Shown here piece after piece: positions 6,778-61,642 of a stretch of DNA of 64,000 nt (positions are counted from its first letter, which is position 1; the number at the start of each line of letters is the position of its first letter). The notes beneath the pieces are model-generated. The model had not been told where the DNA came from, did no database searches, and saw only the letters and a list, made by a program, of their open reading frames with translations. The stretch is taken from positions 26,034-90,033 of IMG/VR virus record IMGVR_UViG_2645727714_000001. One strand, given 5' to 3'. The position numbers and the translations under genes were made by a program. Source of the DNA: a virus (Duplodnaviria > Caudoviricetes).

Positions 6778-7146
6778 TCAGGCGGCGGCAGTGACAGCGC
6801 GGACGGCCTCGCCAGCCGAGGTGGACATCAGCCAGGCGACGGCAGTGTGGTAGCACCGGCGGCCGTGCTGCCCGGCGGTGCAGTCGCAGTGGGTCGCGGA
6901 GGCTCGGTAGATGGAGCCGGCGCTGCCGACGACGGCGAAGATCTTGTTGTCTCCCATGCCTGGCAGGTGGACGACCCCGCCCAGCTCGATGACCTCGATG
7001 GCCCTCTCCACCTGGCTGGCGGAGTAGCCGGCGGCCGTGAGGGCGGCGCGGCAGGCGCAGGCCGGGCCATAGCCGGCGGCGCGCGAGGCCTCCGTGTGGA
7101 GCGGGCGGTTGCACCCCTTGCAGCGGATGGTCTCCTGGGTGATCAC
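6778..7146 (-). CDS. zinc-finger protein (DUF6011-like N-terminus plus SWIM-like finger)
   Basis: CKGCNRPL...SRAAGYGPAC and CDC..GQHGRRCYH. Confidence 0.7.
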   Translation of the reverse strand: MITQETIRCKGCNRPLHTEASRAAGYGPACACRAALTAAGYSASQVERAIEVIELGGVVHLPGMGDNKIFAVVGSAGSIYRASATHCDCTAGQHGRRCYHTAVAWLMSTSAGEAVRAVTAAA

Positions 7147-7180
7147 GCGACCTCCAGCCTCTCTGACCTGCGGCGACCTC

Positions 7181-7259
7181 TAAATTGTAAATGGCCATGT
7201 GACAAAACGTCAAATAAAGATGTGATGTTCTGTCACATGGCCATGTTAAGATCGTGCGC
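7181..7259. promoter_or_regulatory. divergent promoter region with paired operators
   Basis: AT-rich; perfect 14-bp inverted repeat at 7191-7204 / 7231-7244; two TGTGA-N7-TCA(A/C)A palindromes; TACAAT (-) and TAAGAT (+) -10-like hexamers. Confidence 0.75.
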
Positions 7260-7571
7260 ATGGCAGGAGACGAGAGCGAGCTGGCCGCACTGGTGGCGGC
7301 TGTCAACGCCGCGCGTGAGCGCGAGAAGCAGGTGCGCGACGCCGCGCACCTGGACTACTGCCGGGCGATCCGCTCGCTGGTGAAGTACGAGGAGGACGCG
7401 CACGGCAAACACGGAGCCCAGCGTCGGGTGGGGCGCCACCTGAACATGTCCGCCCAGAACGTCGGGACGATGTTGGACCAGCTCTACAGGGCCGAGACTG
7501 GCCAGGAGCGCCCCAAGAAGCCGCGCGCCGCGCGAGCCGCGGCGACAGGGGGAGCGGCGAGCGATGCGTAG
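7260..7571 (+). CDS. putative HTH DNA-binding regulator
   Basis: AQRRVGRHLNMSAQNVGTML is helix-turn-helix-like; first gene after the operator. Confidence 0.55.
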   Translation: MAGDESELAALVAAVNAAREREKQVRDAAHLDYCRAIRSLVKYEEDAHGKHGAQRRVGRHLNMSAQNVGTMLDQLYRAETGQERPKKPRAARAAATGGAASDA

Positions 7572-12163: not shown

Positions 12164-15100
12164 CAGGCCACCGCCAGGGCCAGCTTGCGCTGCATCTCCG
12201 CCAGCATCTCCGGCGTCGACATCGAGCGGTCCAGGTGGAAGTGATTCGTGATCGTCTTCCCGCCGCCGGCTTCGTGGTTGGGGGTCACCCGGGCGCGGGG
12301 CGCCCCGCGGCCGAGCAGCATCAGCTCCGGCCCGTCCTCGCCGACCCAGAACGGCACCCCGTGCGGGGGCAGGCCACCCCGCGCGTAGCCGCCTGGCCGG
12401 GCCCACGCCGACAGCGAGCCGTAGCGGGCGAGCGTGTAGCGGATCGAGGCGTAGATGTTGGCTAGCGGGTCCGTGCTCACGCCGTACAGGAACGGCCCCT
12501 TGTCGCGGAACTGGCCGGCATACGCCTCGAAGGTCGAGCGGATGAGCTGCATCGGGCCAACGCTGGGGTGCCCCTGCTGCCAGTTGATGTCCCAGCGGTT
12601 GACCGCCTGGGTGTTGCCGCCGGACTCCTGGTTCATGCGCTGCAGCAGCAACGTGATCCAGCTTGCAGGCTGCCCGGCCAGCGAGAGCGCCTGGAGCGCG
12701 ACTCCGCGCCACTGCTCCGCGCCGCCGCCCGGCCCGGGTCCGACGGACTCGCCCTCCTTGCCGCGGACCCACTCCAGCAGCTTGTCGAAGGGCGACTGGA
12801 CGAGCCGGCCCAGCGCGCCCTTCAGGTCGGTGCCGGTGCCCAGCGTGGCGTTGATCGCCGCGCGCAGCGGGGACAGCGCAAGCTCGAACCCGCGGGCGAT
12901 GCCCTCCCGGGCCAGGTCCTCGACCTTGTCCACCACCCGGCCGCCGGTGGCGTCCCAGGCTGCGCCCAGCCCGCCGGTGATGGCCCCGCCGATGCCCATG
13001 GCTGCCCCGCGCGCCTGCCCGCCGCCGCCGAACAGGCGCCGCAGCGCGAACATCGCCTTGTGGCCGCCGGCGTTCGCCACCTCCTGGGCGGTCCAGACGT
13101 GCTCATTGAACATCAGGCGCCGCAGCACGCTGTCCTTGCCCGGAGTCCCCTCCAGGATCGGCCCGCCGCGCGCTAGGCCCGGCACCTTCAGCTCCGGCAT
13201 GTCCGGCACCCCGGGGATGCGCCCGACGATGTTGTTCCATGCCTTGCGGATGCCCGAGTTGTAGACCGTGTTCACGACGAAGCGCACCGGTGCGGCGGCG
13301 ACCTCGCGCAGCCCGTCCCAGATCGTGCGGATGCCCCCCACGGTGGTCGAGAAGATCGTCTTGATGCCGCCGAGCGCCGTGCCCACCGCGCCGGAGACCA
13401 GACCGAAGATTCGTGTCGTGGTCGCCCTGATCGCGTCGAGGGCGCCGGACCAGTCGCCGCGGAAGATCGCTGACCAGAACGAGAACAGGCCGCGGATCAC
13501 CTCGAATCCGACCCGGAAGGGCAGGGTGAACCACGTCCACCAGACCTTGACGTTCGTCAAGATCGCGCCGAGCCCGATGTCGATTGCGCCACGCCAGATG
13601 GCCAGGCCGCCCCGCACGATCGACGAGACGAAGTCGAAGCTGCCCCGCCAGATCCCGACGAAGAAGCCGCCGAACGCAGCCGCCGCCGAGCCGACGGCGC
13701 GGAACACGCCCATGGTGTCCGACCCGAAGCCGACGAACCAGCGGCCCACGGCCTGCGCGGTATTACCCACCCAGCGCAAGGCGCCGTCGACGATCCGGCG
13801 GAAGGACTCGCTGTGGGTATAGGCGTACGCGAACGCGGCGGCCAGAGCGATGATCGTCGTGATGACGATGCCGATGACGTTGGCACGCATCGCCGCGTTC
13901 ACGCCCATGATCCCGCCGCGCATCAGCGCCAGCCCGCCGGTCACCGCCCGGGTGGCCGCGCCCATCAGCAGGGTGCGGGTCTGCCAGATCCACTGCGCGG
14001 TCGTCACCGCGGTGACCGCCCCGCGGTAGGCGTACCAGGCCGCGGTCCCGGCCAGCACCGCCACCACGAGCGTGTTGATCAAGGTTCGGTTGCGCTCGTA
14101 GATGCCGAGCGCCCCGCTCACCACCGCGACCACCGCGGCGATCGTCACCTTGATCGGCGCCATCGCGTGTGAGGCGCCCGCGAACACCGGCGAGATCCCG
14201 TTGCCGAAGCGGATCAGCGCAGGCACCGCCGTGCCGCCGAGGTAGTCGATCAGGTCGGCCTTGATCGTCCGGATGAAGCCGGACAGCCGCTGCTGCGGAG
14301 TGGAGTAAAGAGCCTCCCCGGCCCGCGCCGTCGAGCCGGCCAGGTTGGCCACCCCAGTAGCGCTAGTGGACATCGCGGCCATCACCTTCGGCCCGAGGTC
14401 CTCGGCCTGGGTCCCGAAGAGGTCCACCAGCGCGGTGTTGTAGGCCACCGGATCCTTGATCCCGCCCAGGGCCTTCGCCGTCTCGGAGAAGGCGTCCCGC
14501 GCGGAGGCGCCCCCGGCCGCGATGCGCCGCGCCATCGTGTCCGCGTCCAGCCCGGCCAGCCGGAACCCCTCGGCGGAGGTCTCCGACCCGTCGATGGCCC
14601 GGATGGAGAACTCCTTGAGCGCGTCCGCGGCGATGTCGCTGTTGTGGGCCCCGGCGGCCATCGCCGCGTCGATCAGTGAGAGCGACTGCGGGCCCGTCAG
14701 CCCGAGCTTGACGAACTGCCCGCTGTACTCGTTGAGCGTGTCGATCCAGTCGTCGCCGAGGTTCAGCCCGGACTGGAAGCCCGTGGTGATCACGTCGAAG
14801 GCGGATGTCATGTCCGGTACCAGGCCGGACTTGACCATGGTCGAGGCCGCCCGCAGGGTCTCGGGCACCTCGACGCCGAAGACGTCGCGGATGGTCAGCG
14901 CGCCCTGGGTGGCCTTGCCCAGTTCGGCCTTCGAGACGGCACCGAACCCGCCCATGGACTGGGCGATCTGGCCGACCGTGTTCTGGACGTCGGCCAGGGA
15001 CTCACCGAAGTTGTTCCTGAAGACCTGCTGGGCCACGGACCCGGCGGCCTGAGCCTCCTTGGCGGTGGCGCCGAAGGCGGCCTGAAGCTGGGCCTGGCCG

Positions 15101-16244: not shown

Positions 16245-16804
16245 GCGGTCGCGTCCACGATGCGGAAGGGCGGCACCGAGGCCGACACGTAGTGGGCCGC
16301 GAAGGTGACCGGCAGCAGGGTCTGGTCACCTTTCTTGTACGCCATGCCGACGTCCTCCACGGACAGCGTGCGGCGTACGAACACCCGACGCCGGTACCCC
16401 TTCGGTGCGATCCCGTCGAAGATCAGTGCCGTGTAGCTCGGCTGAGTGGCGCTGGTGTCGTTCGGCGGCGACCAGGCCGCGAAGCCGGCGCCCGTACTGG
16501 TGGCCGTGGCGTTGTTCAGCGAGGTGGCGAGGTTCTCCAGAGTGGCCTCGGCGAGGTTGGTCTTGATCGTGGCCTCGCGCTTGGTCAGCCGGCGGCCCGG
16601 GATGTCGACGACCTGGTCCACCTCCAGCTCCGAGTAGGTCTGGGAGATCGTCATCGTGACGCCGTCCTGAGTGCCGCCGACGTCCGTCCAGCCCGACGGC
16701 GCGGGGGTGGCATTGACCTGGGTGTCGGACGGCTCGGCGGTACCGAACGCGCCTCGATAGAGGGTCCCCGGACCCTGGATCAGGTTGGAAACATCGACCG
16801 GCAC
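16241..16804 (-). CDS. major tail tube protein
   Basis: NLIQGPG.LY..W.DVGGTQDGV...VDQ...LAEATLENL. Confidence 0.85.
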   Translation of the reverse strand: MPVDVSNLIQGPGTLYRGAFGTAEPSDTQVNATPAPSGWTDVGGTQDGVTMTISQTYSELEVDQVVDIPGRRLTKREATIKTNLAEATLENLATSLNNATATSTGAGFAAWSPPNDTSATQPSYTALIFDGIAPKGYRRRVFVRRTLSVEDVGMAYKKGDQTLLPVTFAAHYVSASVPPFRIVDATA

Positions 16805-16968
16805 TACTCCGCCCTCCCGCTGTCCGACCCACGCCGGGCCATCTTCGGTGCCTGCTCCTCGCGTCCGTCCTCCACGAGCAGCCCCTCGTGCCGCAGCAGG
16901 CTGTACTCGGTGTCATCCACCTCGATCTCCTCGTCCGGGCGGATAGTCGTGCGCACGGTGTGGGTCAC
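16804..16968 (-). CDS. small hypothetical virion-region protein
   Basis: AGGAGG RBS; VRTTIRPDEEIEVDDTEY..L. Confidence 0.55.
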   Translation of the reverse strand: MTHTVRTTIRPDEEIEVDDTEYSLLRHEGLLVEDGREEQAPKMARRGSDSGRAE

Positions 16969-17186
16969 CGGTAGTCCTCCTTGCGCAGGGGAAAGCGAAC
17001 GGCCGCCATGCCCGGGTGCACCGACAGCGGCATCGAGGTAGCGACGAGGTCCGTCGGGCAGGGCACCACTCGGCTGGCCGGGAACAGGAACTCCAGCTCG
17101 GCCCGGTCTCCGTGCACGATCGCCCGGCCCTGGTAGCTCAGGACCTCGCCGGAGCGAGCGCCCACCAACGCCCACAGCGCGGTCAC
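16965..17186 (-). CDS. hypothetical protein
   Basis: GTGA overlaps at both ends. Confidence 0.55.
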   Translation of the reverse strand: MTALWALVGARSGEVLSYQGRAIVHGDRAELEFLFPASRVVPCPTDLVATSMPLSVHPGMAAVRFPLRKEDYR

Positions 17187-17647
17187 GGCCGCACCCCCGA
17201 CGCATCCGTCCAAGGCAACGCGAGGTCCAGGTCGTACCGGGCGTAACCGGCCTCGTCGTCGGGCACCCGGCGCGGCTCGGTGAGTACGTAGGCCTCCAGT
17301 ACCCGGGCCCGCAGCCCGCCGACGGGCAGTTCCACCACGCGCCCGGCCGCGCCCCAGGTGCCGGCCCGCACCGCCTCGGCCAGCGAGTTGGCCTTGCCCC
17401 ACGGCGGCTTGCCGCTGGTGCGCGGCGCGCACGCCCAGCAGCTCACCGCAACCACCGGCGCACGCACGGGAAGGTGCGGGTTGGGGGAGCCGCCCACCAC
17501 GGCCACCTGCACGAACCCGGTGGAAGCCCAGGCGGCGGTGTCCGTCGGCAGGGTGGTGGCCACCTGCTGTGCCGGCACCTCCGGCACGGTGCGCAGCCAG
17601 GCCACGGCCACCAGGTCGGTGGTGGCGACGACGGCCGGCGCGGTCAC
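17183..17647 (-). CDS. tail terminator / completion protein
   Basis: position; PRRVPDDEAGYARY motif. Confidence 0.7.
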   Translation of the reverse strand: MTAPAVVATTDLVAVAWLRTVPEVPAQQVATTLPTDTAAWASTGFVQVAVVGGSPNPHLPVRAPVVAVSCWACAPRTSGKPPWGKANSLAEAVRAGTWGAAGRVVELPVGGLRARVLEAYVLTEPRRVPDDEAGYARYDLDLALPWTDASGVRP

Positions 17648-20944: not shown

Positions 20945-22423
20945 CTACCGCTGGTTGACCAGGATGCGCGATACCCGGATCTGCTTGGCCGAGGCGGCCA
21001 GCGTGGTCACACTCGCCTGGTAGCCGAGCTGGGTGAACGCGCTCGGGATGGTGACGCTGTGGGTCGCGACAAGGACGTCCCCGACCCAGAAGCGCACGAC
21101 GCTGGCGGCCCAGTTCAGCTCCGCGCGCAGCTCGTAGGTGGTCACCGCGGCGATCGCTGCGATGGTGACCGTGACGGTGGCGTTGGTGCCGTCGCAGGTA
21201 ACCGTGCGCCAGTAGGACGTGCCGTCGATCGCAGAGTCGTAACGGAAGTAGATCCCCGTGGCGGTCGACGCGCCGCTCGCGGCCGGGCCCGCGCCGCTGG
21301 AGCGGTCCGCGGTGACCAGGCCGACGACATAGCGAGTGCTGGCTACGGAGGTGTTGTCTGTCTGGATCTTGCCGTAGAAGTAGGGCAGCGAGCTGGTGCG
21401 CAGGTGGGTGTAGTTCGGGCTCGTGACCCCGCCGACGCTTCCCGCGGTCGCAGCCGTGGTGAACAGGGCGAAGTTGCTTTCGATGGTGTCGGCGCCGCCC
21501 GCGGTCGCGGCGGTCAGCGTCGGCGCCGGGCAGCCGATTGTCTGGAAGGTGGACGCGCCGCCGGAGGCATGGATGCCCCAGGTGATCCGCCTCGATGGCG
21601 CCCCGAGCTCCTCCTGGTGCCCCGAGGAGGTACGCAGCATGAGCCGCCCGGCCCGTGACCACAGCACCACGCCCGCACGGGTCGCGAATGCGTTCTCGGC
21701 CGTATGGGAGCCATCCGGGTTCGAGCTCGGCGGGGTGTCGGCGTCCCCCAGGGCCAGCACGTCGATCCCGCCGCCCGGGTCGCCCTGGGCCATCCGCACG
21801 CCGCCGTAGGAGTTCGCCGCGAACCGGCGGTCGAACACTCCGACGGCCGTGAACAGAAGGTCGTTCGGGTCAGCGGAGTACAGACCCGCGCCGCCGAATG
21901 GCGCGACGCCGAAGATGACCGCGCCCCGGAAGTCGCGCACGAGTAGCAGCTGGCGACTGGAGCCTTCTCGGCCTCGGATGACCACGCCATCCCTGGAGCC
22001 GTCCGGGAGTAGAAAATTCCAGACGCCCTCGTTCGAGCTCCCCGTGCCTCCCAGGACCCGCTGGACCGTGCCGCCGGAGACGTAGGTGCCCGACCCTGTG
22101 GCGGCCGAGAGGGTGAAGGCGGTGTTGCTAGTGATCGCGGCGATGGTGCGGACGCCGTTGACACCGGAGATGCCGGTGGCGCCCGAGATGGTCACCACGT
22201 CACCCGCGCCGTAGCCGTGGCTGGCGGACGTGGTGATCGTGACGGTGGAGGTTCCGGCGACTCCGGAGATTGCCAGAGGCGCCTCGCCGGAGATGATCGT
22301 TCCGTCCGCGAGCACCCCGGCGCGGGCTGCGATGTCCCCGGGCAGGCGCGTGTCCCATACGCGGGCGGTGATCGCGGAGGCCACCCGGCCGGCGAACGCG
22401 GTTACCGCGCGGGTCAGCGGCAT
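20945..22423 (-). CDS. fibre or receptor-binding-like structural protein
   Basis: VTITTSASHGYGAGDVVTISG...NG..TI...F beta module and a Thr/Gly-rich C-terminal beta-sandwich-like region. Confidence 0.6.
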   Translation of the reverse strand: MPLTRAVTAFAGRVASAITARVWDTRLPGDIAARAGVLADGTIISGEAPLAISGVAGTSTVTITTSASHGYGAGDVVTISGATGISGVNGVRTIAAITSNTAFTLSAATGSGTYVSGGTVQRVLGGTGSSNEGVWNFLLPDGSRDGVVIRGREGSSRQLLLVRDFRGAVIFGVAPFGGAGLYSADPNDLLFTAVGVFDRRFAANSYGGVRMAQGDPGGGIDVLALGDADTPPSSNPDGSHTAENAFATRAGVVLWSRAGRLMLRTSSGHQEELGAPSRRITWGIHASGGASTFQTIGCPAPTLTAATAGGADTIESNFALFTTAATAGSVGGVTSPNYTHLRTSSLPYFYGKIQTDNTSVASTRYVVGLVTADRSSGAGPAASGASTATGIYFRYDSAIDGTSYWRTVTCDGTNATVTVTIAAIAAVTTYELRAELNWAASVVRFWVGDVLVATHSVTIPSAFTQLGYQASVTTLAASAKQIRVSRILVNQR

Positions 22424-23526: not shown

Positions 23527-23867
23527 GACTGCTCCACTTCGGCCTGGGCGGCCTCGCGCGGGTCCGCGAGCTCCACCGGCACCGCGTAGGTGAGCACGGT
23601 GTGCCGGCCGTCCCGGTGCGGTTCCTCGCTGACCAGGCGGGCCTCCCCGGCCGGGCGCAGCCCGGCGAAAACGGCCTCATGCGTGGTGCCGGCCTGGTTG
23701 GGGCCGTGGTCGAAGCCCTCGCCGTAGGAGCGGGCGTCCACCACGAACTGCCGGCGGAACTCCCGAGCCTGCCCGGCCCGTTCGGGCTCGTCCCGTCCCC
23801 GGCGGGCGATCACCTGCTCGGCGCTCTCGCCGCGAGGGGTCTCGGCGCTGGCCTGCCGGGTGGCCAT
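23523..23867 (-). CDS. hypothetical protein downstream of capsid
   Basis: TGATG coupling to the capsid gene. Confidence 0.6.
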   Translation of the reverse strand: MATRQASAETPRGESAEQVIARRGRDEPERAGQAREFRRQFVVDARSYGEGFDHGPNQAGTTHEAVFAGLRPAGEARLVSEEPHRDGRHTVLTYAVPVELADPREAAQAEVEQS

Positions 23868-24781
23868 CAGCGGGTGTCTTCCATGATCGCGAAAGCGCCC
23901 GGGTGGCCGATCGTGAACCCGCGCCGTGAGCGCATCTTCAGGATCGACTCGTCGGACAGGAAGCCGATGCCGGTGTCGCCGGACACCATCCGGGACTCCG
24001 GCCCCGAGCGCATGCCCAGCTTGAGCATGGTCCGGTTGCCCACGATCATCAGCGGGTTGCCGCCAGGCCGGGCGGTGTTGATCGCCGAGGTCCGCGCGCC
24101 CATGCTCCAACGCACCGGCAGCTCGAACAGCGTGTCCGGGGTGCCCTCGCGGCCACTGATGAAGATCGGACGGCCGGAGTCGTCCTTGATGCCGCGGAAG
24201 TTCTTCCGAAAGGTCGGGTGCGCGAGCACGAGGACCTCGTCCTCGGCCCAGTAGTCCGAGTTCTCCACCAGGTTGACCGTTTCGGACAGCGCGTCGTACG
24301 AGGGACCGCCGCTCCCGGTCGCGGTGTAGTTGCTGTTGGCCACGTAGCCGACGTCCGGGTCATCGGTGCGGATCGCCCGGTAGACGCTGGTGAACAGGAC
24401 CGTGGTCCCGTTCTCCGCGCCGGTGCAGCCCAGGGTGGAGTTATCCAGGTACTTGGCGTACGAGGTCGCCCAGTCCCGCTGCTTGACCTGGATGATCGCC
24501 ACGGGGGAGTCCGCGAGGTCCTCATCCGCGATGCGGATGGCCTTGCCCATCTTGCGGGCGGTCAGCAGCACCTCGTCGTTGAGCGAGACGTCCTCGCCGT
24601 AGGTCTGCCCCTTGCCGACGCCCTCGACCTCCACGCCGCCGGAGCGGGGGATGGTGCGGGTGTCGGTGCCCATCGGGACGCGCAGCGCCACGTCCTCGAC
24701 CACGGACATCTGGCGGATGCGCTGGATGACATCGGAGTCCTGCTCCTCCGGAATCCAGTCGTCGAAGATCGTGCGAGCCAC
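23867..24781 (-). CDS. major capsid protein (HK97 fold)
   Basis: WIPEE..., KDDSGRPIF, LFELPV, RRGF.IGHP.AFA; GAAAGG RBS. Confidence 0.9.
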   Translation of the reverse strand: MARTIFDDWIPEEQDSDVIQRIRQMSVVEDVALRVPMGTDTRTIPRSGGVEVEGVGKGQTYGEDVSLNDEVLLTARKMGKAIRIADEDLADSPVAIIQVKQRDWATSYAKYLDNSTLGCTGAENGTTVLFTSVYRAIRTDDPDVGYVANSNYTATGSGGPSYDALSETVNLVENSDYWAEDEVLVLAHPTFRKNFRGIKDDSGRPIFISGREGTPDTLFELPVRWSMGARTSAINTARPGGNPLMIVGNRTMLKLGMRSGPESRMVSGDTGIGFLSDESILKMRSRRGFTIGHPGAFAIMEDTR

Positions 24782-25037
24782 GGCGGGCGCCTTTCGGTGC
24801 GGATGGGTGAGTGATTCGCCCATCCGGGCGTCCTGCCGTGCGCTCCACCTGGAGCCGTGGTGCCGGTGCCTCCGCTCGCCGCGCTCATCCGGGCGCCAGC
24901 GAGACGTGCCGTCGATCCGTCACGGATCTGGCGGTGATGCTAACTCTCTGTTGCGGCCCTGTCGAGGTAGTGGAAGGTGTGCGGGGCGGGTGTGACCCAA
25001 TGGTGACGACGTGCACCAAGTGTGGCAATCTGGGTGC

Positions 25038-26177
25038 ATGGCGGATGTCGATCGGGGGACTCGGTTCCAGGGCGCGAACCGGTTCACCGGCGAGGAGGTG
25101 GCGGAGCTTGCCACCGCCTACCCGAATCTCGCTGACACTCGTCGCTTGCTCGATAGGGCTGGATTTCATTTCCCCGATCTCCCGCAAGTTTGGCAGATTT
25201 GGTTTGAAGTGATTGCCGGTGTCGAAGATGGCACATTGAGAGACGGGAGGGAAAAGATTCTTGGAGTGGCACATCAAGAATTTCCCGAAAATCCCGTCTT
25301 TCGGCGCGGAACCCTTTTGAGTAAACTTGGTACTCAAGGCGTAAACCTGGTTGATTCAAATGTTTTCATGGAGGTGGCGACCTCTCCTTTCGCGGAGCTG
25401 GCGAATCTTTGGAGTGCCTCCCATTTTGCGTGGCAAAATAGACCGCAGGAAACGGAAGCCCCGCTCCATCGGAGGCGTATCGAGGCGTTCGTGCTCAGGA
25501 ATCCGGGTCTTGGCTCTGGGCCGGTTTCGGTCGTTATTTGGGGCGGAGATACGGGTGCACGGGAGAGTCCGCCGAGCGATCCGCCGCCCCCGCGAGGAAA
25601 CGTGGGGGGGCGGCGCGCTAGGCGCGCTTCGTTTGAATTTGAAAGTGATTACCGCCATCGGCTACCGCTGGAATTGCAACTCCTGCGGGCTCAGGTCGCA
25701 AGGGAACGTGCGCTTCTCGGTAAGCTTTCTGAGGAACGCCAGAGGCTCGCAGCGCAGCTGGCCGGAGAGGGTGAGCTGCTCGCTGAGATATCCAGAGAGC
25801 GGCAGCGCATCCAGCTCCTATCTGCCGACGAGGCGGGGCGGTATTCACCTACCTCGAGTGTCGACGAAATTGGGTCGACTGATAATCCGTCGAATGCGGA
25901 CGGTCAACGGGATTCGCTCGGGCCCGCATCGCCGCAAGGAGGCTTTTTCAAAAAGATCCTCGGTTCGGCGCTCCGTGCTTTGCGTTTCTCTCTCCCAGTC
26001 AGGCCACAGCCTCCTACGCTGCCGCGCGAGCCTGATCAAGGCGAGGTTTCGGCTAACCTCCATGCAATTCTAACTAAGATCGAAAACGAACTTGACGGTC
26101 AGTTCCAACGCTTCGGTGAGCTCGTGGCCGAGGAGTCTTCCTACACTACTACGAGTCATGAGGATCCAAGACGGTGA
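25038..26177 (+). CDS. EAD1-like (effector-associated domain) plus coiled-coil protein, moron
   Basis: ELATAYP...RRLLDRAGF....P..W.EV...VEDG....GR.KIL..A..EFPENPVF resembles actinobacterial EAD1; low GC; antisense to the late operon. Confidence 0.65.
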   Translation: MADVDRGTRFQGANRFTGEEVAELATAYPNLADTRRLLDRAGFHFPDLPQVWQIWFEVIAGVEDGTLRDGREKILGVAHQEFPENPVFRRGTLLSKLGTQGVNLVDSNVFMEVATSPFAELANLWSASHFAWQNRPQETEAPLHRRRIEAFVLRNPGLGSGPVSVVIWGGDTGARESPPSDPPPPRGNVGGRRARRASFEFESDYRHRLPLELQLLRAQVARERALLGKLSEERQRLAAQLAGEGELLAEISRERQRIQLLSADEAGRYSPTSSVDEIGSTDNPSNADGQRDSLGPASPQGGFFKKILGSALRALRFSLPVRPQPPTLPREPDQGEVSANLHAILTKIENELDGQFQRFGELVAEESSYTTTSHEDPRR

Positions 26178-26662
26178 CCGCCTCCCATGAGACATCGACC
26201 GCCACCGTCCCGGGTCTGGATTCGCTCGATGTCGGAAGACTCTATGACGCCAGCCTTATTGAGAGGCTCAGTCGCAAGGACCCTGAGGTTCGCGCGTTCG
26301 TCATGGAGCGCATGAAGGCCGAGCACGACAGCCTCATCGAACAGCGCCGCGAGCGGACCCGCCGGGCAGGCAGTGAGGCGAGTCACCGGTACCGGCAAGC
26401 CTGGGCGGAGATAGGTGTTCGTGTAGCCGGGATCGGCTTAGGCTTCGCTGCCGTCATAAATCTCTCGGCGCTCGCCAAGCACTACAGCGACATCGGCCAA
26501 GCCGGCTACGGCGTCCTCATCGTCACGAGCGGCGCCGTGGCGATCGCCGGCATCTTCGTCCTCGGCAAGTTCGTCGGCCGCATGCCGCGAGTTCCGATCA
26601 ACACACAGAGTCCGCCGCCGGTCGACCCCAGCGCCAACGGAGGCGGCCCGGCCGCACCCTGA
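26174..26662 (+). CDS. two-TM membrane protein, moron partner
   Basis: GTGA coupling; two hydrophobic helices; one TTA codon at 26438. Confidence 0.7.
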   Translation: MTASHETSTATVPGLDSLDVGRLYDASLIERLSRKDPEVRAFVMERMKAEHDSLIEQRRERTRRAGSEASHRYRQAWAEIGVRVAGIGLGFAAVINLSALAKHYSDIGQAGYGVLIVTSGAVAIAGIFVLGKFVGRMPRVPINTQSPPPVDPSANGGGPAAP

Positions 26663-26677
26663 GCGACCGGGCCGCCG
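26643..26677. terminator. hairpin between the convergent moron and scaffold genes
   Basis: GGCGGCCCGG ... CCGGGCCGCC. Confidence 0.5.
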
Positions 26678-26680
26678 CCC

Positions 26681-27388
26681 TCAGCCCAGCAGCGCGGCCA
26701 GTCGCTCGGCCGAGGTCTTGGCCTTGGCCGGCTCGGGCTTGCGGTCTGCGGCGTCGGCCTTCGGTCGCTTCGCCGGCTCCGGCTTGGGCCTGGGGAAGAA
26801 CTCCGGGTAGTCGGCCTTGATCGCCTCCACCTGGTCAGCCAGGCCGGTCACCTCCCCGTCCACGTCCACCTCGATGCTGTCCTGGTCCAGCAGGCGGTAC
26901 AGCCGCGCGAACTTGCCCTCCGACGGCTTGCCGTTCTCGTCGATCAGCGCGGCATTCGCGTCGTGGAACGCGGCCTTGGCCGCGGAGCGGACGATGATCG
27001 GCTTGTAGCGCCCCTCGGTCTCCTTCGCGGACTCCTCCTGGGCCTCCCTCAGGGCCTTGTCGTGGTCACTCTCGCCCTTGCGCTTGTCCGCGGCCACCTG
27101 CTCCTTGAGCTTGCGCAGATCGGTGCGGTAGCGGCGTGCCTCCTCCCGAGTGCGGGCCAGGGAGTCCCGCAGGGTGCGCAGTTCGGACGCGCTCGGCCGG
27201 TCCTCGTCGCCGTTGTCGTCCGCGTCCTTGCTGGCGTTCTCGTCGGCGTCCGCGTCGCGGTCGTCGTCCCCGCCGCCGGACTTCGGGTCGGTCCTGCTCT
27301 CCTCCTTGCTGCCGACCTTGCCCTCCTCAGCGCCGGCGTCGTCGGTGTCGTCGTCCTCCGGCTCGGGCCGGGCGTCCTCGTCTGCCAT
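26681..27388 (-). CDS. capsid scaffolding protein
   Basis: acidic N-terminus, coiled coil EARRYR, GL..QVEAIKADYPEFF. Confidence 0.85.
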   Translation of the reverse strand: MADEDARPEPEDDDTDDAGAEEGKVGSKEESRTDPKSGGGDDDRDADADENASKDADDNGDEDRPSASELRTLRDSLARTREEARRYRTDLRKLKEQVAADKRKGESDHDKALREAQEESAKETEGRYKPIIVRSAAKAAFHDANAALIDENGKPSEGKFARLYRLLDQDSIEVDVDGEVTGLADQVEAIKADYPEFFPRPKPEPAKRPKADAADRKPEPAKAKTSAERLAALLG

Positions 27389-35327: not shown

Positions 35328-36029
35328 TCATCTCCCCTCGGCGGCACCGACGGCACTGCGCCAAAAGTTGGGGTCGGCGTACTCCGTGGGGTCGAGCACG
35401 CCCGCGAGGTGGAGAGCCTCGGCGCGCTCGACGCAGGTTCCGCACCGGCCACAGTGCCGCTCGCCGCCCTCGTAGCAGGACCAGGTCAGCGCGACGGGAA
35501 GCCCGACCAAGCCGGCGATCCGGGCGATGTCAGCCTTGGAGGTGTGCACGTACGGTGCCTCGACGGTGACCGCACTGTCGGTGCCCCGCTGCGTAGCCTC
35601 GCTCGCCGCGGCGATGAACTCGGGCCGGCAGTCCGGGTAGATCGGATGGTCCCCAGTGTGGACGGCCGTCAGCACTCGGTCGCACCCGTGCGCCAGCGCG
35701 ACGCCTGCGGCGGCCATGAGCAGGGTTGCGTTGCGGTTCGGCACCACCGTCGCCCGCATCGACTCCGCGGCGTAGTGCCCGTTCGGCACGCCCACCGCCG
35801 GGTCGGTCAGCGCGGAGCCGACCAGCAGCGAGCCCCAGGCAGTCAGATCGAGCACGAGGTGGGGCACCGCGTAGTGCGCGGCGACCTCGGCGGCGGCACG
35901 CAGCTCCCGAGCGTGGCGCTGTCCGTAGTCGACCGACAGCGCCAGTCGCGCGGTGTTCTCCTTCGCCCGTTCGGCGAGCAGGGTGGAGGAGTCCAGCCCC
36001 CCGGACAGCAGGACAAGGTCACGCGGCAT
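35328..36029 (-). CDS. queC: 7-cyano-7-deazaguanine (preQ0) synthase
   Basis: SGGLDS, YGQRH, VPNRN, YPDCR, TWSCY, CGRCGTC. Confidence 0.95.
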   Translation of the reverse strand: MPRDLVLLSGGLDSSTLLAERAKENTARLALSVDYGQRHARELRAAAEVAAHYAVPHLVLDLTAWGSLLVGSALTDPAVGVPNGHYAAESMRATVVPNRNATLLMAAAGVALAHGCDRVLTAVHTGDHPIYPDCRPEFIAAASEATQRGTDSAVTVEAPYVHTSKADIARIAGLVGLPVALTWSCYEGGERHCGRCGTCVERAEALHLAGVLDPTEYADPNFWRSAVGAAEGR

Positions 36030-37020
36030 CGGTGAGGCCCCTTCGGCGGCAGACGTGGCGACTTCCCCAGCGCCGCCAGATCGGTGGGTTCCAGGGAGCG
36101 ACGCGGGCGGGGTCCTGTCCGAGAAGCGGCAGGGCACCCAGTCCGGCGCCGACGGGACGTCGCCCGTGCAGGTGAGCGTCGGCGGCGCTTGCGCCCTCGT
36201 AGTCGTTACCCGACACCGAGCTGAACAGGTGCGGTCCGCTGTTCGTGAACCGGACAGGTGGAGGGACAGGGATCCATTGGCGCAAGGCCTCGTCGGCGGC
36301 GGCATAGGAGAGACTCATCGCCTTCATCAGGTCCTGGCGCCCGCCGGCCTTGCTGGGGAGGCGCCCGGCTCGGACCAGCGGGGCTAGGTCGATCTCGTGT
36401 TCCATGAGGTGCCGATGGGCGCGAAGTATCGCCGCATGGTCGGCTACGGTCACTTGGCGTACGTCGCGTCCGTCGAAGTAGGCAATCCCGCCATAGCGGA
36501 ACTGCACTGAGATATTGGAAGCGTCCGCGGAGTATGGCCGAGCCCTACGCAGGACGCTCAGCGCCCCAACACCGAGGGCGTGGATGCCTCCGCCGAGACG
36601 TTCGGCTCGACGCTGGAGCATCCCGACCCGCGCCGTCTGTGCCTCGCCGGGCATGCCGACCAGCCCTCCGACACAGACGTAACCGACCTCGCGCACCATT
36701 GCGTCGAACTCGGCGAGAGAGTCGCCGCGAGTGAACACCGGCATAACCGGAAGTCCGCGGTCGTGCAGCTTACGGGTGTTGGCCCGGGTGGCCGCGGGGT
36801 CGCCGATGACGTCGAGGGTGATTGCGTGGTCCCAGTGGCCGCGCCACCGCTCCAGGTACCACGCATACGCCCCCAGTTCAATCGGACGACCGCTGCTGTG
36901 AGCAGTGAAGGCGCCTGAGTCGATCATCATCTGACCGCACACGAGGTTCGTCCGAACGGCAGCGAGGTCGACGCTGGCGTTGAGCGCGTACGACAACAGC
37001 AGGTTGACGGACACGCTCAC
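36019..37020 (-). CDS. dpdA: DpdA-like DNA deazaguanine transglycosylase (TGT fold)
   Basis: IDSGAF, LDVIGD, PVF, YVCVGGLV, IHALG, YSADAS; adjacent to queC. Confidence 0.8.
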   Translation of the reverse strand: MSVSVNLLLSYALNASVDLAAVRTNLVCGQMMIDSGAFTAHSSGRPIELGAYAWYLERWRGHWDHAITLDVIGDPAATRANTRKLHDRGLPVMPVFTRGDSLAEFDAMVREVGYVCVGGLVGMPGEAQTARVGMLQRRAERLGGGIHALGVGALSVLRRARPYSADASNISVQFRYGGIAYFDGRDVRQVTVADHAAILRAHRHLMEHEIDLAPLVRAGRLPSKAGGRQDLMKAMSLSYAAADEALRQWIPVPPPVRFTNSGPHLFSSVSGNDYEGASAADAHLHGRRPVGAGLGALPLLGQDPARVAPWNPPIWRRWGSRHVCRRRGLTDAA

Positions 37021-48302: not shown

Positions 48303-48529
48303 CGGGTCGTTCCCTCGGCGGTGAAGTTCCGGGTCAGCCAGTCGTCGTAGTCGTGCTCGCGAAAGACCGGCAGGTGATTGGCCTCGTGCACGGCGAGCAG
48401 CACCTCGATGGGCACCGCGTCCAACTCCTCGCTGTCCGGCAGCGGCACGCCGGAGCCGGTCAGCAGGTTCGGGTGCGCGCGGGCCAGGTGGGCGATCAGT
48501 GCCTCGCGGTCGACGTCGGGATTGGCCAT
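48299..48529 (-). CDS. hypothetical protein
   Basis: coupled ORF. Confidence 0.5.
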   Translation of the reverse strand: MANPDVDREALIAHLARAHPNLLTGSGVPLPDSEELDAVPIEVLLAVHEANHLPVFREHDYDDWLTRNFTAEGTTR

Positions 48530-48876
48530 CACCAGTCGCCCAGCCGCGTGTGGTGTTGGCAGTCGTTCCGGCTCTCGATCTCGGCGGGCTCCATCGCCCG
48601 CACGTTCACGATTGCCGTGAGATCGACCTCGACGGTCGCGTCTGGGTATTCGAGGCCAAAGGACTCGGTCTCGCCTCCAGCAGCCAGGACGGCGCACCGC
48701 CAGCATCGAGAAATCCCATGATCGGGATCGGGGTACTGGTTTCTCGGATCGTCGTCCGAACAGGAGGACCGGTCGTGTTCCCGAATCTCGTTCGCTACGA
48801 GCCGTCCGATTTCCGTGGCGAGGTCGTTGGCGCGCCCGGCCCAGTCGCCAACCGAGAACGTTGTCTTCTTGAACAC
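48529..48876 (-). CDS. hypothetical protein (H/C motif, lower GC)
   Basis: EHDRSSCSD...CWRC; GGAG RBS. Confidence 0.55.
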   Translation of the reverse strand: MFKKTTFSVGDWAGRANDLATEIGRLVANEIREHDRSSCSDDDPRNQYPDPDHGISRCWRCAVLAAGGETESFGLEYPDATVEVDLTAIVNVRAMEPAEIESRNDCQHHTRLGDW

Positions 48877-48886
48877 AGGATCTCCG

Positions 48887-49039
48887 TTAGATGTCGTGGC
48901 GGACGGCCCCGAGCTGCCACCAGGAGGTGCAACTCAGGCTCAAGGCGATGGTCTTGACCAGGTGCGCGACCAGTGCGGCAGGGTCGACGACGGCGCTCAC
49001 CGGCGTCCGCGTGCCCTTGACGCCGTAGAAGCGGCTCAC
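48887..49039 (-). CDS. hypothetical small protein
   Basis: GTGA overlap. Confidence 0.35.
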   Translation of the reverse strand: MSRFYGVKGTRTPVSAVVDPAALVAHLVKTIALSLSCTSWWQLGAVRHDI

Positions 49040-59343: not shown

Positions 59344-60398
59344 TGGGCGGTCGACGTAGCGACGAGCGCTGGTACAGGGCGTTCTGGGACTCAGGGCTCC
59401 TGCTGCCCTCGGTCACCACGATCATTGGCAGCGTCAGCGCCAAGGGCGGCATCCCGTACTGGCACGGCACCGAGGCCGCGCGGTACGCGGTCGAGCGCCA
59501 CGACGAGATCGCCGACCTGATCGCGCAGGGCGAGGAGAAGCGAGCCATCGCGCTGATCGCCGGGGCGCCGCGGCGCATCACGGCCGAGGCCTCCGAACTG
59601 GGCAAGCTGTTCCACCGAGTGGCCGACGCCAAGATCCGCAACCGGAACCTGCCCCTCACTGAGGATGAGGCCGAGGCGGTGGCCCCGTTCGAGGCCACGC
59701 TCGATCGGTTCATCGAGGAGATGCAGCCGACCTACCGCTGGACGGAGGCCACTCTCTACAACCGGCGCCTGCTCTACGCGGGCACCGGGGACTGCGGCCT
59801 GGAGCTCGGGGTGTCGCTCCCGGTGGTGATGCGCCGCAGGCTGGTTCACACCTTTCCGCCCGGCGAGCTGCTGATCGGGGACTACAAGAGCGGCAACGCC
59901 GTGTACGACGAGACCGGCGCGCAGCTCACCGGCTACGCCTCGTGCAGCCACATGAGTCTGCGTGACGCCACCAACACCATCGTCGAGATGCCCCGGGTGG
60001 CCGGCGGGGTGGTCATCCACATCCGCCCGGACGGCTACCGGGCCCACGGGGTGCTGATCACCCCGGAGATGCGCGCAGGGTGGGAGTACGCCCGGCGCTG
60101 GTTCGAGGTCCAGCGTGAAGTGGTGTCGGGCTCCGTCGGCCTAGGCGTGCGCGCAGGCGGCTTCCGCGTAGACGACTTCACCTCGATCGACATTCGGGTG
60201 CGTAACGCACTGGCCCTACGCGGCGTGTCCACGCTCGCGGACCTGGAGGCATTCGGCCCGGAGAAGCTCCTGGCCATCAAGCACGCCGGACCCGCCACGG
60301 TGGGAACCGCGCGGGAAATCCTGGCCATCGAGGGCAGGGAATGGCCCCTCGGGCCGGACGAGACCACGGAAACCACCCAGGAGAGGGGGGCCGCGTAA
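59343..60398 (+). CDS. Cas4/RecB-like PD-(D/E)xK exonuclease with C-terminal RNAP alpha-CTD-like domain
   Basis: PSVTTII, G..FH, E, YAGTGD, DYKSG, QL.GY; C-terminal IRVRNAL..RGV.TL.DL......LLAIKHAGPATV. Confidence 0.75.
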   Translation: MGGRRSDERWYRAFWDSGLLLPSVTTIIGSVSAKGGIPYWHGTEAARYAVERHDEIADLIAQGEEKRAIALIAGAPRRITAEASELGKLFHRVADAKIRNRNLPLTEDEAEAVAPFEATLDRFIEEMQPTYRWTEATLYNRRLLYAGTGDCGLELGVSLPVVMRRRLVHTFPPGELLIGDYKSGNAVYDETGAQLTGYASCSHMSLRDATNTIVEMPRVAGGVVIHIRPDGYRAHGVLITPEMRAGWEYARRWFEVQREVVSGSVGLGVRAGGFRVDDFTSIDIRVRNALALRGVSTLADLEAFGPEKLLAIKHAGPATVGTAREILAIEGREWPLGPDETTETTQERGAA

Positions 60399-61642
60399 TG
60401 GCGATCCTGTTGCCGGAGATTCTGAACATGCAGCAGCGAGGCGTGCTGGAAGGTCAGCTCCGTATTGGTACATCCAAGCCCGGGAAGAATGGCGGGAAGC
60501 AGCCCGTCAAGCTCAAGACCTGGCGCATTACCTCTCCCTCCAAGAAGTCCGTCGAGGCCGCCGCAGCGAAGTTCGGCGGAGAGGTGGTCCGGTGGGATGC
60601 TGACCAGGGCCTCCAGTGGGAGGTGATCACGCCGCTGGAGGCGCTGCCGGTGGACTTCGGCGGGGTCAGCGGCGCGGTGGACCAGTGGATGACCCACTTC
60701 GACCAGGGCATCCTGATGCGCCGCTGCACCGGGGGCGAGGGTGCGGTCAACGAGGTCTCCAGGCGTCCCTGCGAGTGCCAGGCGGCGGACCGCCTGCTGT
60801 GCAAGCCGGAGACGCAACTGCTGGTGCGGTTCCTGGACCTGCGCGGCATCGGGTGGTGGCGCTTCACCTCGCGCGGCAAGTTCGTGGCCGCAGGCTTCCC
60901 CGTCAAAGCCAACTGGCTGCGTAACGCGGCGGCCGAGCTGCGCAAGCGTGCCGAGAAGGAAGGAAAGGGCGGGGACTGGTTCCTGCCCGCGAAGTTGGTG
61001 ATCCGGGAGATGAAGCTGCCACCCAAGACGCCCGGCGGCCCGGGGCGGCGCTTCCCGGTGGTGGACATCGACATCGATGCGTCGGTTCTCCAGATCATGA
61101 TGGGGGAGGGCGGCGGCACCATCCAGGAGCTTGCCGCCGTGCGCCAGCAGGAGCGTCTCGCTCTCACCGCCGGCACCAGCGCGGGTCCGGCCGCACTACC
61201 CGCCGGCTCCGGCGGGGCCGCGTCGGTCCTGGCCTCGGCTCCGGCCAACGCGGTGCCCGAGCAGCAGGCCGCGCCCCTCCCGCCGCGCCAGGTCAGCCGA
61301 CCCGCACAGCAGGCTCGGCCGGCGGCACCCCCGGCGGATGACGCCGAGCGGGCCCGGCAGGCCGCGGAGTGGGCGCGGCGCCCCGACATCACACGCCAGA
61401 AGGTCCTGGACTTCCTGGAGAAGAACAAGGCCAACCCGGCGATGGACGAGTTCCTGCCGAGCGAAGGTGACGAGCCGGCCAGCACGCTGCGGGACTTCCT
61501 GGGCGACCGACTCCAGGAGCTGAGCGAGGGCGTCAAGGAGCGCCCGGACGGCTGGGACGAGGAGTTGGGCATGGCCGTCCCGGTGGACGCGGGCGTGTCG
61601 CCGGAGGAGATGGAACAACTGGCCGCGCAGGCCTCGCCGTGA
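60398..61642 (+). CDS. Gp3-like (recombination directionality factor-like) protein
   Basis: G.LRIG...P.KL.TWR.TS...RRC.G...PC.C....CKP.T.L. Confidence 0.7.
   Translation: MAILLPEILNMQQRGVLEGQLRIGTSKPGKNGGKQPVKLKTWRITSPSKKSVEAAAAKFGGEVVRWDADQGLQWEVITPLEALPVDFGGVSGAVDQWMTHFDQGILMRRCTGGEGAVNEVSRRPCECQAADRLLCKPETQLLVRFLDLRGIGWWRFTSRGKFVAAGFPVKANWLRNAAAELRKRAEKEGKGGDWFLPAKLVIREMKLPPKTPGGPGRRFPVVDIDIDASVLQIMMGEGGGTIQELAAVRQQERLALTAGTSAGPAALPAGSGGAASVLASAPANAVPEQQAAPLPPRQVSRPAQQARPAAPPADDAERARQAAEWARRPDITRQKVLDFLEKNKANPAMDEFLPSEGDEPASTLRDFLGDRLQELSEGVKERPDGWDEELGMAVPVDAGVSPEEMEQLAAQASP

Follow-up and report, generated by a model that had tools for sequence, protein, structure and literature searches.

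A foreign two-gene insert with an EAD1 adaptor domain between the scaffold and capsid genes of a Zukovirus-like provirus

The locus and the origin of the insert

The virus record IMGVR_UViG_2645727714_000001 (90,033 bases, labelled as a provirus, completeness estimate 93%) carries, in the 64,000-nucleotide stretch analyzed here (positions 26,034 to 90,033 of the record; "the window"), two overlapping open reading frames (ORFs), ORF A and ORF B, which run against the surrounding head genes and separate the scaffold gene from the major capsid gene. The window is phage DNA almost throughout, and its - strand carries the terminase, portal, MuF, scaffold, capsid, tail and tape measure genes. The nearest named phages are the Streptomyces phages Zuko and KimJongPhill (Zukovirus), with capsid identities of 58-59% (58.9% to the capsid of Zuko). 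The ORF A protein is present also on two bacterial contigs (565 kb and 1.42 Mb). The locus contains the following features (aa, amino acids or residue positions; pLDDT, predicted local distance difference test; AF2, AlphaFold2; TM, transmembrane):

23867-24823, - strand: major capsid gene, flanking the insert and outside it (PF05065, E 2.1e-15)
24824-25037, no strand: divergent spacer of 214 bp from the capsid start to the ORF A start, the expected site of an ORF A promoter
25038-26177, + strand: ORF A, 379 aa, ATG start, EAD1 followed by an orphan non-enzymatic region
25080-25307, + strand: EAD1 domain, ORF A aa 15-90 (PF19955)
25314-25613, + strand: ORF A aa 93-192, an unassigned stretch and then a Pro/Arg-rich linker (no homologue; pLDDT <50)
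25614-25841, + strand: predicted long helix of ORF A, aa 193-268, with a 21-residue internal repeat, coiled-coil-like (single-sequence AF2)
25938-25997, + strand: basic amphipathic helix of ORF A, aa 301-320, candidate membrane-binding helix (hydrophobic moment 0.53, net charge +4)
26010-26174, + strand: C-terminal helical module of ORF A, aa 325-379 (matched by the metagenomic protein P0007)
26174-26662, + strand: ORF B, 162 aa, GTG start, charged N-terminal part, two-TM hairpin and Pro-rich tail
26639-26679, no strand: GC-rich hairpin over the stop codon of ORF B, where ORF B and the scaffold gene converge (17-nt arms, 88% complementary)
26681-27388, - strand: scaffolding protein gene, flanking the insert (PF06810, E 8.9e-14)

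The TGA stop of ORF A and the GTG start of ORF B overlap as GTGA, and a Shine-Dalgarno-like GAGGA lies 9 nt upstream of ORF B; an alternative in-frame GTG for ORF A is found at 25011. The original prediction for this stretch, made from the letters alone, had described two coupled reverse-strand genes between scaffold and capsid, and the coordinates 25038-26177 and 26174-26662 together with the overlap bear this out. The hairpin at 26639-26679 has a folding energy of -36.7 kcal/mol on the + strand (z -2.5) and of -48.6 kcal/mol on the - strand (z -3.1), and is a candidate two-way terminator lacking a U tract. The sole sigma-70-like site of the region is located on the - strand (24965-24937, TCGACA-17-TAGCAT) and is directed at the capsid gene. 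With this site facing the capsid gene and a strong hairpin just past the scaffold stop, the scaffold and capsid genes may be transcribed separately as a result of the insertion. The spacer between capsid and ORF A also holds a perfect 15-bp palindrome, GATCCGTCACGGATC (GATCCGT-C-ACGGATC, 24914-24928), which occurs as a single copy in the window and thus gives no support for a shared operator.

The insert is foreign to the phage, as judged from composition and distribution. ORF A and ORF B have GC contents of 0.58 and 0.66, compared to 0.675-0.77 in the adjoining genes, and GC contents at third codon positions (GC3) of 0.58 and 0.79, compared to 0.87-0.94. The lower GC originally reported for the insert is matched by the deepest GC trough of the window, at 24901-26500, where GC falls to a minimum of 0.535 against a mean of 0.715 (standard deviation 0.034); milder dips at 7101-7500 (0.627) and 48501-49000 (0.632) are the sole other segments of the window below 0.64. 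The claim of atypical codons including TTA holds for ORF B, which has the single TTA of the pair (26438-26440), and does not hold for ORF A, which has none. At this composition, an open frame of 380 codons would arise by chance with a probability of about 9e-7; the corresponding value for ORF B alone is about 0.02.

In a tblastn comparison of six head proteins against 23 loci, matches to ORF A and ORF B were restricted to three of them, i.e., the record itself and two cuts of one near-identical IMG/VR record. The latter shows seven differences over 3.5 kb, two of them being N, and is therefore not an independent witness. The remaining 20 relatives (17 from IMG/VR as well as the phages Zuko, KimJongPhill, and Rooney) all lack the insert: MuF and capsid are separated by 0.83-1.49 kb in these genomes, which accommodates the scaffold gene only, compared to 2.6 kb here. 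The proposal that the insertion splits two normally adjacent genes is thus borne out by 20 of 20 relatives, none of which has room for the pair or a homologue of it. When the scaffold-capsid spacer was aligned at the nucleotide level with Zuko, KimJongPhill, and Rooney, nothing matched beyond the capsid coding start.

Both proteins are isolated in larger collections as well. In a 5.8-billion word-indexed collection, ORF A matched only itself, and so did ORF B. Searches with tblastn returned no match to ORF A in 50,697 phage records or 72,556 plasmids, and none to ORF B in phages (E <= 1) or plasmids (E <= 0.01). Patterns derived from ORF A recovered the near-identical prophage alone from IMG/VR and nothing from a collection of genome contigs, and a scan of IMG/VR with a single pattern from a small EAD1 alignment, which is a weak test for EAD1 in other viruses, found the same prophage only.

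An EAD1 domain, an orphan helical body and a membrane protein

The N-terminus of ORF A is a genuine EAD1, a small, non-enzymatic, all-alpha terminal domain. The hidden Markov model (HMM) PF19955 matches aa 15-90 (47.8 bits, with the cut-off at 24.2; E 2.1e-12; positions 2-84 of the 90 in the profile), and a six-frame search gives 50.9 bits for ORF A. The EAD1 assignment made from the letters alone is hereby substantiated, and the idea that the N-terminus might not be an EAD can be set aside. ORF A retains each of the 11 columns that are invariant in an alignment of 16 EAD1 sequences; the conserved columns comprise E/A/L in helices 1-2, P, W, G, GR, A and a P.N motif before the final helix, and the loop before the W helix is six residues shorter in ORF A. 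An AF2 model built with the alignment has five helices (pLDDT 88.3, predicted template modelling score 0.78). When 1.84 billion representative proteins were searched exhaustively with HMMER (E <= 0.001), 23 proteins were returned: ORF A itself, 21 that match the EAD1 only (query positions 6-92, 31-46% identity), and P0007. The named EAD1 relatives are a TIR protein of Frankia and CHAT/EAD1 proteins of Streptomyces.

The EAD1 of ORF A likely has a Death-like fold. When the model was compared to 48,161 chains with VIA-align, which is independent of Foldseek, CARD, Death, DED and pyrin domains occupied 41 of the 50 top rows, with Z scores of 4.3-6.3, in a range (Z <8) that is common among helical bundles. 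The best row was 8jol_C (Z 6.3, root-mean-square deviation 2.9 A, 77 residues aligned); others include the CARDs of CED-3/CED-4, Dronc, RIP2, and Apaf-1, the death domains of PIDD/RAIDD and MyD88, as well as vFLIP, the AIM2 pyrin domain, and cPOP1. Since these scores are only modest, the fold is likely but not proven. The Death-domain-like character that had been ascribed to EAD1 is supported at the level of the fold only, with modest Z scores; a Foldseek search of the model against the Protein Data Bank (PDB) gave no match at E <= 0.001. The accessible text of Kaur et al. (2021; PMC8195603) likewise speaks of "structural parallels" for EAD1 and claims homology for bDLD1-3 only.

Beyond EAD1, the remaining ~290 residues of ORF A match no family in Pfam, NCBIfam, PADLOC, PHROGs, or the PDB sequences, and EAD1 is the only Pfam match of the protein at E up to 1. 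This agrees with the original description of ORF A as having no enzyme domain, as none was detected in Pfam, NCBIfam, PADLOC, or PHROGs. Residues 93-192 are without a homologue among the 1.84 billion representative proteins. The single-sequence AF2 model of the whole protein is poor (pLDDT 49.6), as is the Atlas model (0.49), which has no usable structural neighbors; helices are nevertheless predicted at 193-268 (pLDDT 82-89 over 220-260), 301-317, and 334-374. The first of these bears out in part the repetitive coiled coil that had been proposed. A long helix, a repeat with a 21-residue period (223-236 and 244-257, 8 of 14 positions identical) and a steady heptad register over ~205-253 speak for it; a crude heptad test over 199-268 is not significant, with 351 of 2000 shuffled sequences scoring equally well. 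ORF A has no TM helix. With a charge of +4 and a hydrophobic moment among the highest of the protein, the basic helix at 301-320 is a candidate for membrane binding. An assignment to the EACC1-caspase "System 4" was considered and rejected, with ORF A having no TM helix and a caspase being absent.

The sole part outside EAD1 with a relative is the C-terminus. P0007, a protein of 59 aa from a metagenome contig of 1,793 bp, matches ORF A aa 325-379 (E 1.0e-5 over the whole library), and the alignment reaches both C-termini, which have a common ...EDP.R end. P0007 is a small protein in its own right or else the end of a longer gene that was miscalled. Searches of genome, viral, and metagenome collections did not yield its contig, and an alignment of ORF A and P0007 found nothing in metagenomes and one match in 401 Streptomyces-genus genomes, which is at chance level (per-genome E 0.0056).

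ORF B is predicted from hydropathy to have two hydrophobic segments, at aa ~80-102 and 110-134, separated by an eight-residue loop, in keeping with the two TM helices originally ascribed to the partner of ORF A. The hairpin is preceded by a charged, presumably cytoplasmic part of ~78 residues and followed by a Pro-rich tail. In Pfam, ORF B has sub-threshold matches only, namely to DUF2613 and Phage_holin_3_6 (E 0.025). A role as a holin was rejected: the holin match is below threshold and is also obtained with a true DUF2335 protein through TM similarity, and the reverse-strand position between head genes does not suit a holin.

A resemblance to DUF2335 is suggested by an Atlas feature search, in which the nearest clusters are from actinomycetes, named or partly annotated as DUF2335 (similarity 0.91-0.92, 188-199 of 256 features in common). 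The family model PF10097 has 50 positions and describes a cytoplasmic motif, PLPPP...PG.AER...HR; it recovers control proteins from two comparison loci (51.6 and 24.1 bits) and does not match ORF B at E <= 1, nor is there a PHROG match below E 0.19. ORF B lacks the N-terminal PLPPP...PG.AER of DUF2335. Five true members nevertheless have the same layout, i.e., a cytoplasmic helix, a TM hairpin with a short loop, and a tail, and hhalign aligns ORF B to them with a probability of 75% (E 2.5e-5), over the TM hairpin only (aa 79-132), where hydrophobic composition inflates scores. ORF B thus bears a resemblance to DUF2335 while remaining below the threshold of the family model. PF10097 is itself rare in actinomycetes, with matches in 2 of 151 genomes from the Streptomyces genus and in 3 of 401 from the phylum.

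In 401 Streptomyces-genus genomes, weak matches to ORF B were obtained in 60 (best 5.9e-5 per genome). When 22 of these loci (L027-L048) were re-examined by tblastn, six had a match at E <= 1. The closest genes, in L032 (30% identity over 102 aa) and L030 (30% over 84 aa), are more similar to ORF B than the DUF2335 members are and were the only ones that seemed to have the same architecture; neither has an ORF A-like gene upstream. A recurrent weak class, which aligned with ORF B aa 3-73 and comprises frames of ~175-217 or ~1100 aa, had no tblastn match. The best ORF B-like gene (L032:1417-1779, + strand) lies in a local low-GC stretch of a Streptomyces-genus genome (GC of the locus 0.648), is preceded by an unrelated gene for a 296-aa membrane protein and stands beside a histidine-kinase-like gene; it may be part of a foreign islet.

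A putative membrane effector or exclusion module, and its alternatives

The pair probably acts on the immune signalling of the host, either by feeding into it or by jamming it. We tentatively read the pair as a prophage-expressed membrane effector or exclusion module that is coupled via EAD1, and consider this reading to have somewhat less than an even chance of being correct. On this view, a Zukovirus-like actinomycete prophage took up the two genes by horizontal transfer as a self-contained cargo unit (moron). The unit would have a transcript of its own in the lysogen, opposite in direction to the late operon, and ORF B would be made at a fixed ratio with ORF A through translational coupling. 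ORF A could serve as a non-enzymatic adaptor with an EAD1 docking domain, a self-associating long helix, an amphipathic helix, and a C-terminal helix. It might multimerize and be held at the membrane by the latter two helices and by ORF B, and the pair would be located there as an effector or exclusion arm. The EAD1 might couple like-with-like to EAD1-bearing immune proteins or to itself, and upon activation ORF B might perturb the membrane, leading to the abortion of a superinfecting phage as proposed for RexA/RexB or gp30/gp31 of phage Sbash.

Expression in the lysogen, binding of ORF A to ORF B, multimerization, an EAD1 partner, and a membrane damage or defence phenotype are thus steps that we infer. 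The reverse orientation in the late operon and the terminal hairpin would fit an EAD1-coupled membrane module, and so would the translational coupling, the TM partner, and the amphipathic helix; the module would also agree with the recruitment of additional effectors that Kaur et al. (2020; PMC7159879) ascribe to EAD1. A moron is reportedly an autonomous cargo unit in a late operon that is absent from relatives, deviates in composition, and has a promoter and a terminator to itself, a concept said to go back to Juhala and colleagues in 2000. For the present pair, absence from 20 of 20 relatives, the GC trough, and the hairpin were observed, and a promoter-like site was not found on the + strand. 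It is also conceivable, if doubtful, that a host-type EAD1 acquired by the phage was joined to a multimerizing helix and a membrane anchor, and that the resulting protein locks or drags EAD1-wired host immune proteins at the membrane, either hijacking them as an exclusion weapon of the prophage or jamming them. If true, the EAD adaptor network would gain its first viral member, and ORF A would be a small, tractable handle for a first experimental test of the "like-binds-like" coupling of EADs.

Several observations weigh against a membrane module of this type. Upstream of ORF A, no sigma-70-like site was found on the + strand by a scan that captures Streptomyces promoters poorly. No integrase was detected among the ORFs scanned in the window and in two further loci (L024 and L025). 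We know of no Zukovirus relative that is temperate, and "provirus" is the record's own label. ORF A has no recognizable sensor or enzyme, and PADLOC-DB v2 has no family for ORF A or ORF B at E <= 1. A second PF19955 match is absent from the 90,033-base record, where ORF A is the only one. In the likely host genus, which is itself judged from the closest phages, EAD1 was present in just 12 of 201 sampled genomes (Streptomyces genus), one of them being the centre genome that had been picked for its EAD1, so that a host EAD1 partner for ORF A is far from assured. The pair is a near-orphan of one prophage lineage without independent relatives, which also weakens the case for its significance. Finally, the prophage exclusion pairs that might serve as models have DUF4747 in the soluble partner and four TM helices in the membrane partner, as described in the accessible text of Gentile et al. 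(2019; PMC6426596), whereas ORF A has no DUF4747 in the Pfam scan and ORF B has two TM helices compared to four in RexB and gp31.

As an alternative, the pair might act in anti-defence, as a decoy or sink in which a membrane-held multimer of ORF A binds host EAD1 proteins and blocks their assembly. The targets could be core scaffolds or TIR, caspase, and CHAT effectors, and the benefit could be protection of the phage at infection or of the prophage at induction. ORF A would suit this role in being adaptor-only and without an enzyme, in having an EAD1 of probably Death-like fold with vFLIP and cPOP1 among its structural neighbors, and in finding its nearest EAD1 relatives within actinomycete proteins of the TIR/NTPase (nucleoside triphosphatase) and CHAT types. 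Likely counter-defence genes (NADAR-domain, ArdC-N/IrrE-like and QueC) are also present in the phage, and a precedent is provided by pCARD, a protein of Acinetobacter phage 133 (Wein et al., 2023, preprint in the part available; PMC10312443). However, the 290 extra residues and the coupled membrane protein would be superfluous in a decoy, and ORF A departs from the adaptor-only architecture of pCARD by ~290 residues beyond EAD1, including a helix of 76 residues. The gene lies on the reverse strand inside the late operon instead of in the early region. With a best EAD1 identity of 35-46% in 1.84 billion representatives and a GC3 of 0.58, the EAD1 of ORF A has not been copied recently from a high-GC host EAD1, and EAD1 occurs sporadically, in 12 of 201 genomes, within the likely host genus. 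We place a decoy close behind the membrane module in likelihood, well short of an even chance; the two-TM partner and the basic amphipathic helix favor the membrane module, since a decoy would need no membrane partner.

It is improbable, though worth weighing, that the pair is a divergent form of a cassette made up of a small partner and a DUF2335 membrane protein, in which the upstream partner was extended by a fused coiled coil and EAD1. The function would then be the membrane-linked one of the cassette itself, with EAD1 as a secondary add-on. Such an origin would account for the DUF2335-like Atlas neighbors of ORF B, for the layout that it has in common with true members (including the hhalign match), and for the last 55 residues of ORF A, which match the 59-aa P0007 up to the C-terminus and are of the size of a small partner. 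Against this stand the lack of any PF10097 or PHROG match for ORF B at E up to 1, the missing PLPPP...PG.AER motif, and the confinement of the hhalign match to the TM hairpin, whose hydrophobic composition inflates scores. Moreover, no ORF A-like gene precedes either of the two best ORF B-like genes (L032 and L030), and the P0007 contig was not found in the collections.

Least of all do we expect recently acquired passenger DNA with no current function, its frames intact through the youth of the insertion: the single prophage with one near-identical copy, which leaves no time for selection to show, the codon usage unadapted to the host, and the lack of a detected promoter are compatible with it, but a 380-codon open frame with a chance of ~9e-7, an intact EAD1 that keeps every invariant column, and the tidy GTGA overlap with its Shine-Dalgarno-like site and terminal hairpin make it very unlikely.

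A phage-borne EAD1 protein means that mobile elements take part in the EAD adaptor network. If ORF A binds host EAD1, the pair would be a two-gene reagent for testing the coupling principle, and viral interference with Death-fold assemblies would extend to a new adaptor family and to the phages of actinomycetes. If ORF B is DUF2335-like, the fusion of its partner to EAD1 would give a first functional hint for that prophage membrane cassette.

Other genes of the record deserve mention in their own right. A QueC homologue (35328-36305, - strand; PF06508, E 8.5e-56) points to 7-deazaguanine modification of the phage DNA. The early region, outside the window (locus L024, G000:C1:1-20000), encodes NADAR-domain, NUDIX, and IrrE/ArdC-N-like proteins (940-1599, + strand; 13883-14548, - strand; 16568-17590, - strand), which are possible counter-defence genes, as well as two DUF3987 genes of the primase/helicase type. 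A protein of 492 aa encoded in the structural region (20945-22423, - strand) matches the ubiquitin-E1 FCCH domain (PF16190, E 3.2e-8, aa 59-123), which is odd in a phage head-tail region. At 60341-61642 (+ strand) lies a gene for a Gp3-like recombination directionality factor (PF18897, E 1.4e-19).

Comparison with known conflict and exclusion systems

EAD1 was described as a domain that "primarily recruit[s] other effectors", which are joined to a core system through binding of like to like. EAD-linked genes elsewhere in the genome are said to widen the effector repertoire, and the effector classes include coiled-coil or superstructure-forming as well as membrane-associated versions (Kaur et al., 2020, accessible text; PMC7159879). 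In the text available, this wiring of effectors to cores in multicellular bacteria is presented as a prediction (PMC7159879; PMC8195603). ORF A has in common with the NTPase-centred EAD1 conflict systems a terminal, small, all-helical EAD1, an actinomycete setting, and a fusion partner that is not part of the core. Unlike these chromosomal operons, however, the present EAD1 is encoded by a prophage, and no second EAD1, NTPase/vWA/GAP1 core, or enzymatic effector adjoins it or is found in the 90-kb record. A two-gene actinobacterial system that is membrane-proximal and EAD1-capable is similar in gene number, in its actinobacterial setting, in its location near the membrane, and in the possible presence of EAD1; the present EAD1 protein differs in having no TM helix, the membrane gene is located 3' and encodes two TM helices, and there is no caspase or cyclase.

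The closest viral parallels are adaptors of the Death fold. pCARD lowered gasdermin cleavage and defence according to the available part of the preprint (Wein et al., 2023; PMC10312443), which also cites vFLIPs and the pyrin-only proteins of poxviruses as analogues from eukaryotic viruses. Like these proteins, ORF A would be a viral adaptor without an enzyme, of a probably Death-like fold, for which interference with like-with-like assembly is plausible. However, pCARD has "no other protein domains", whereas ORF A has ~290 further residues and a coupled membrane partner, and the adaptor is a CARD in the former and an EAD1 in the latter.

With respect to gene arrangement, the pair resembles the established prophage exclusion systems RexAB of lambda and gp30/gp31 of mycobacteriophage Sbash, which combine a soluble and a small membrane protein (Gentile et al., 2019, accessible text; PMC6426596). 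The likeness lies in a prophage-borne soluble protein followed by a small membrane protein, and in the proposed abortion through the membrane; the exclusion pairs are located in the immunity region, whereas the present genes lie in the head-gene block and have no sequence similarity to them. DUF2335 (PF10097) membrane proteins are comparable to ORF B in that a TM hairpin follows a helical, cytoplasmic head and precedes a tail. Their cassettes encode a small basic protein upstream, in contrast to the 379-aa, EAD1-bearing product of the gene upstream of ORF B.

As originally stated, the two-gene arrangement has no description in a phage in the literature searched, in which Kaur et al. (2020, 2021) are represented by their accessible text (PMC7159879; PMC8195603). 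The word "phage-encoded" does not occur in the accessible text of these two papers, "prophage" is found in the references of one of them only, and "decoy" refers to inactive host enzymes only. Decoys of the Death fold in phages are already in print with pCARD, and the pair is not a new kind of system. What is new is the combination of an EAD1, an orphan helical body, and a coupled membrane protein, carried as a reverse-strand insert in the head-gene block of a phage.

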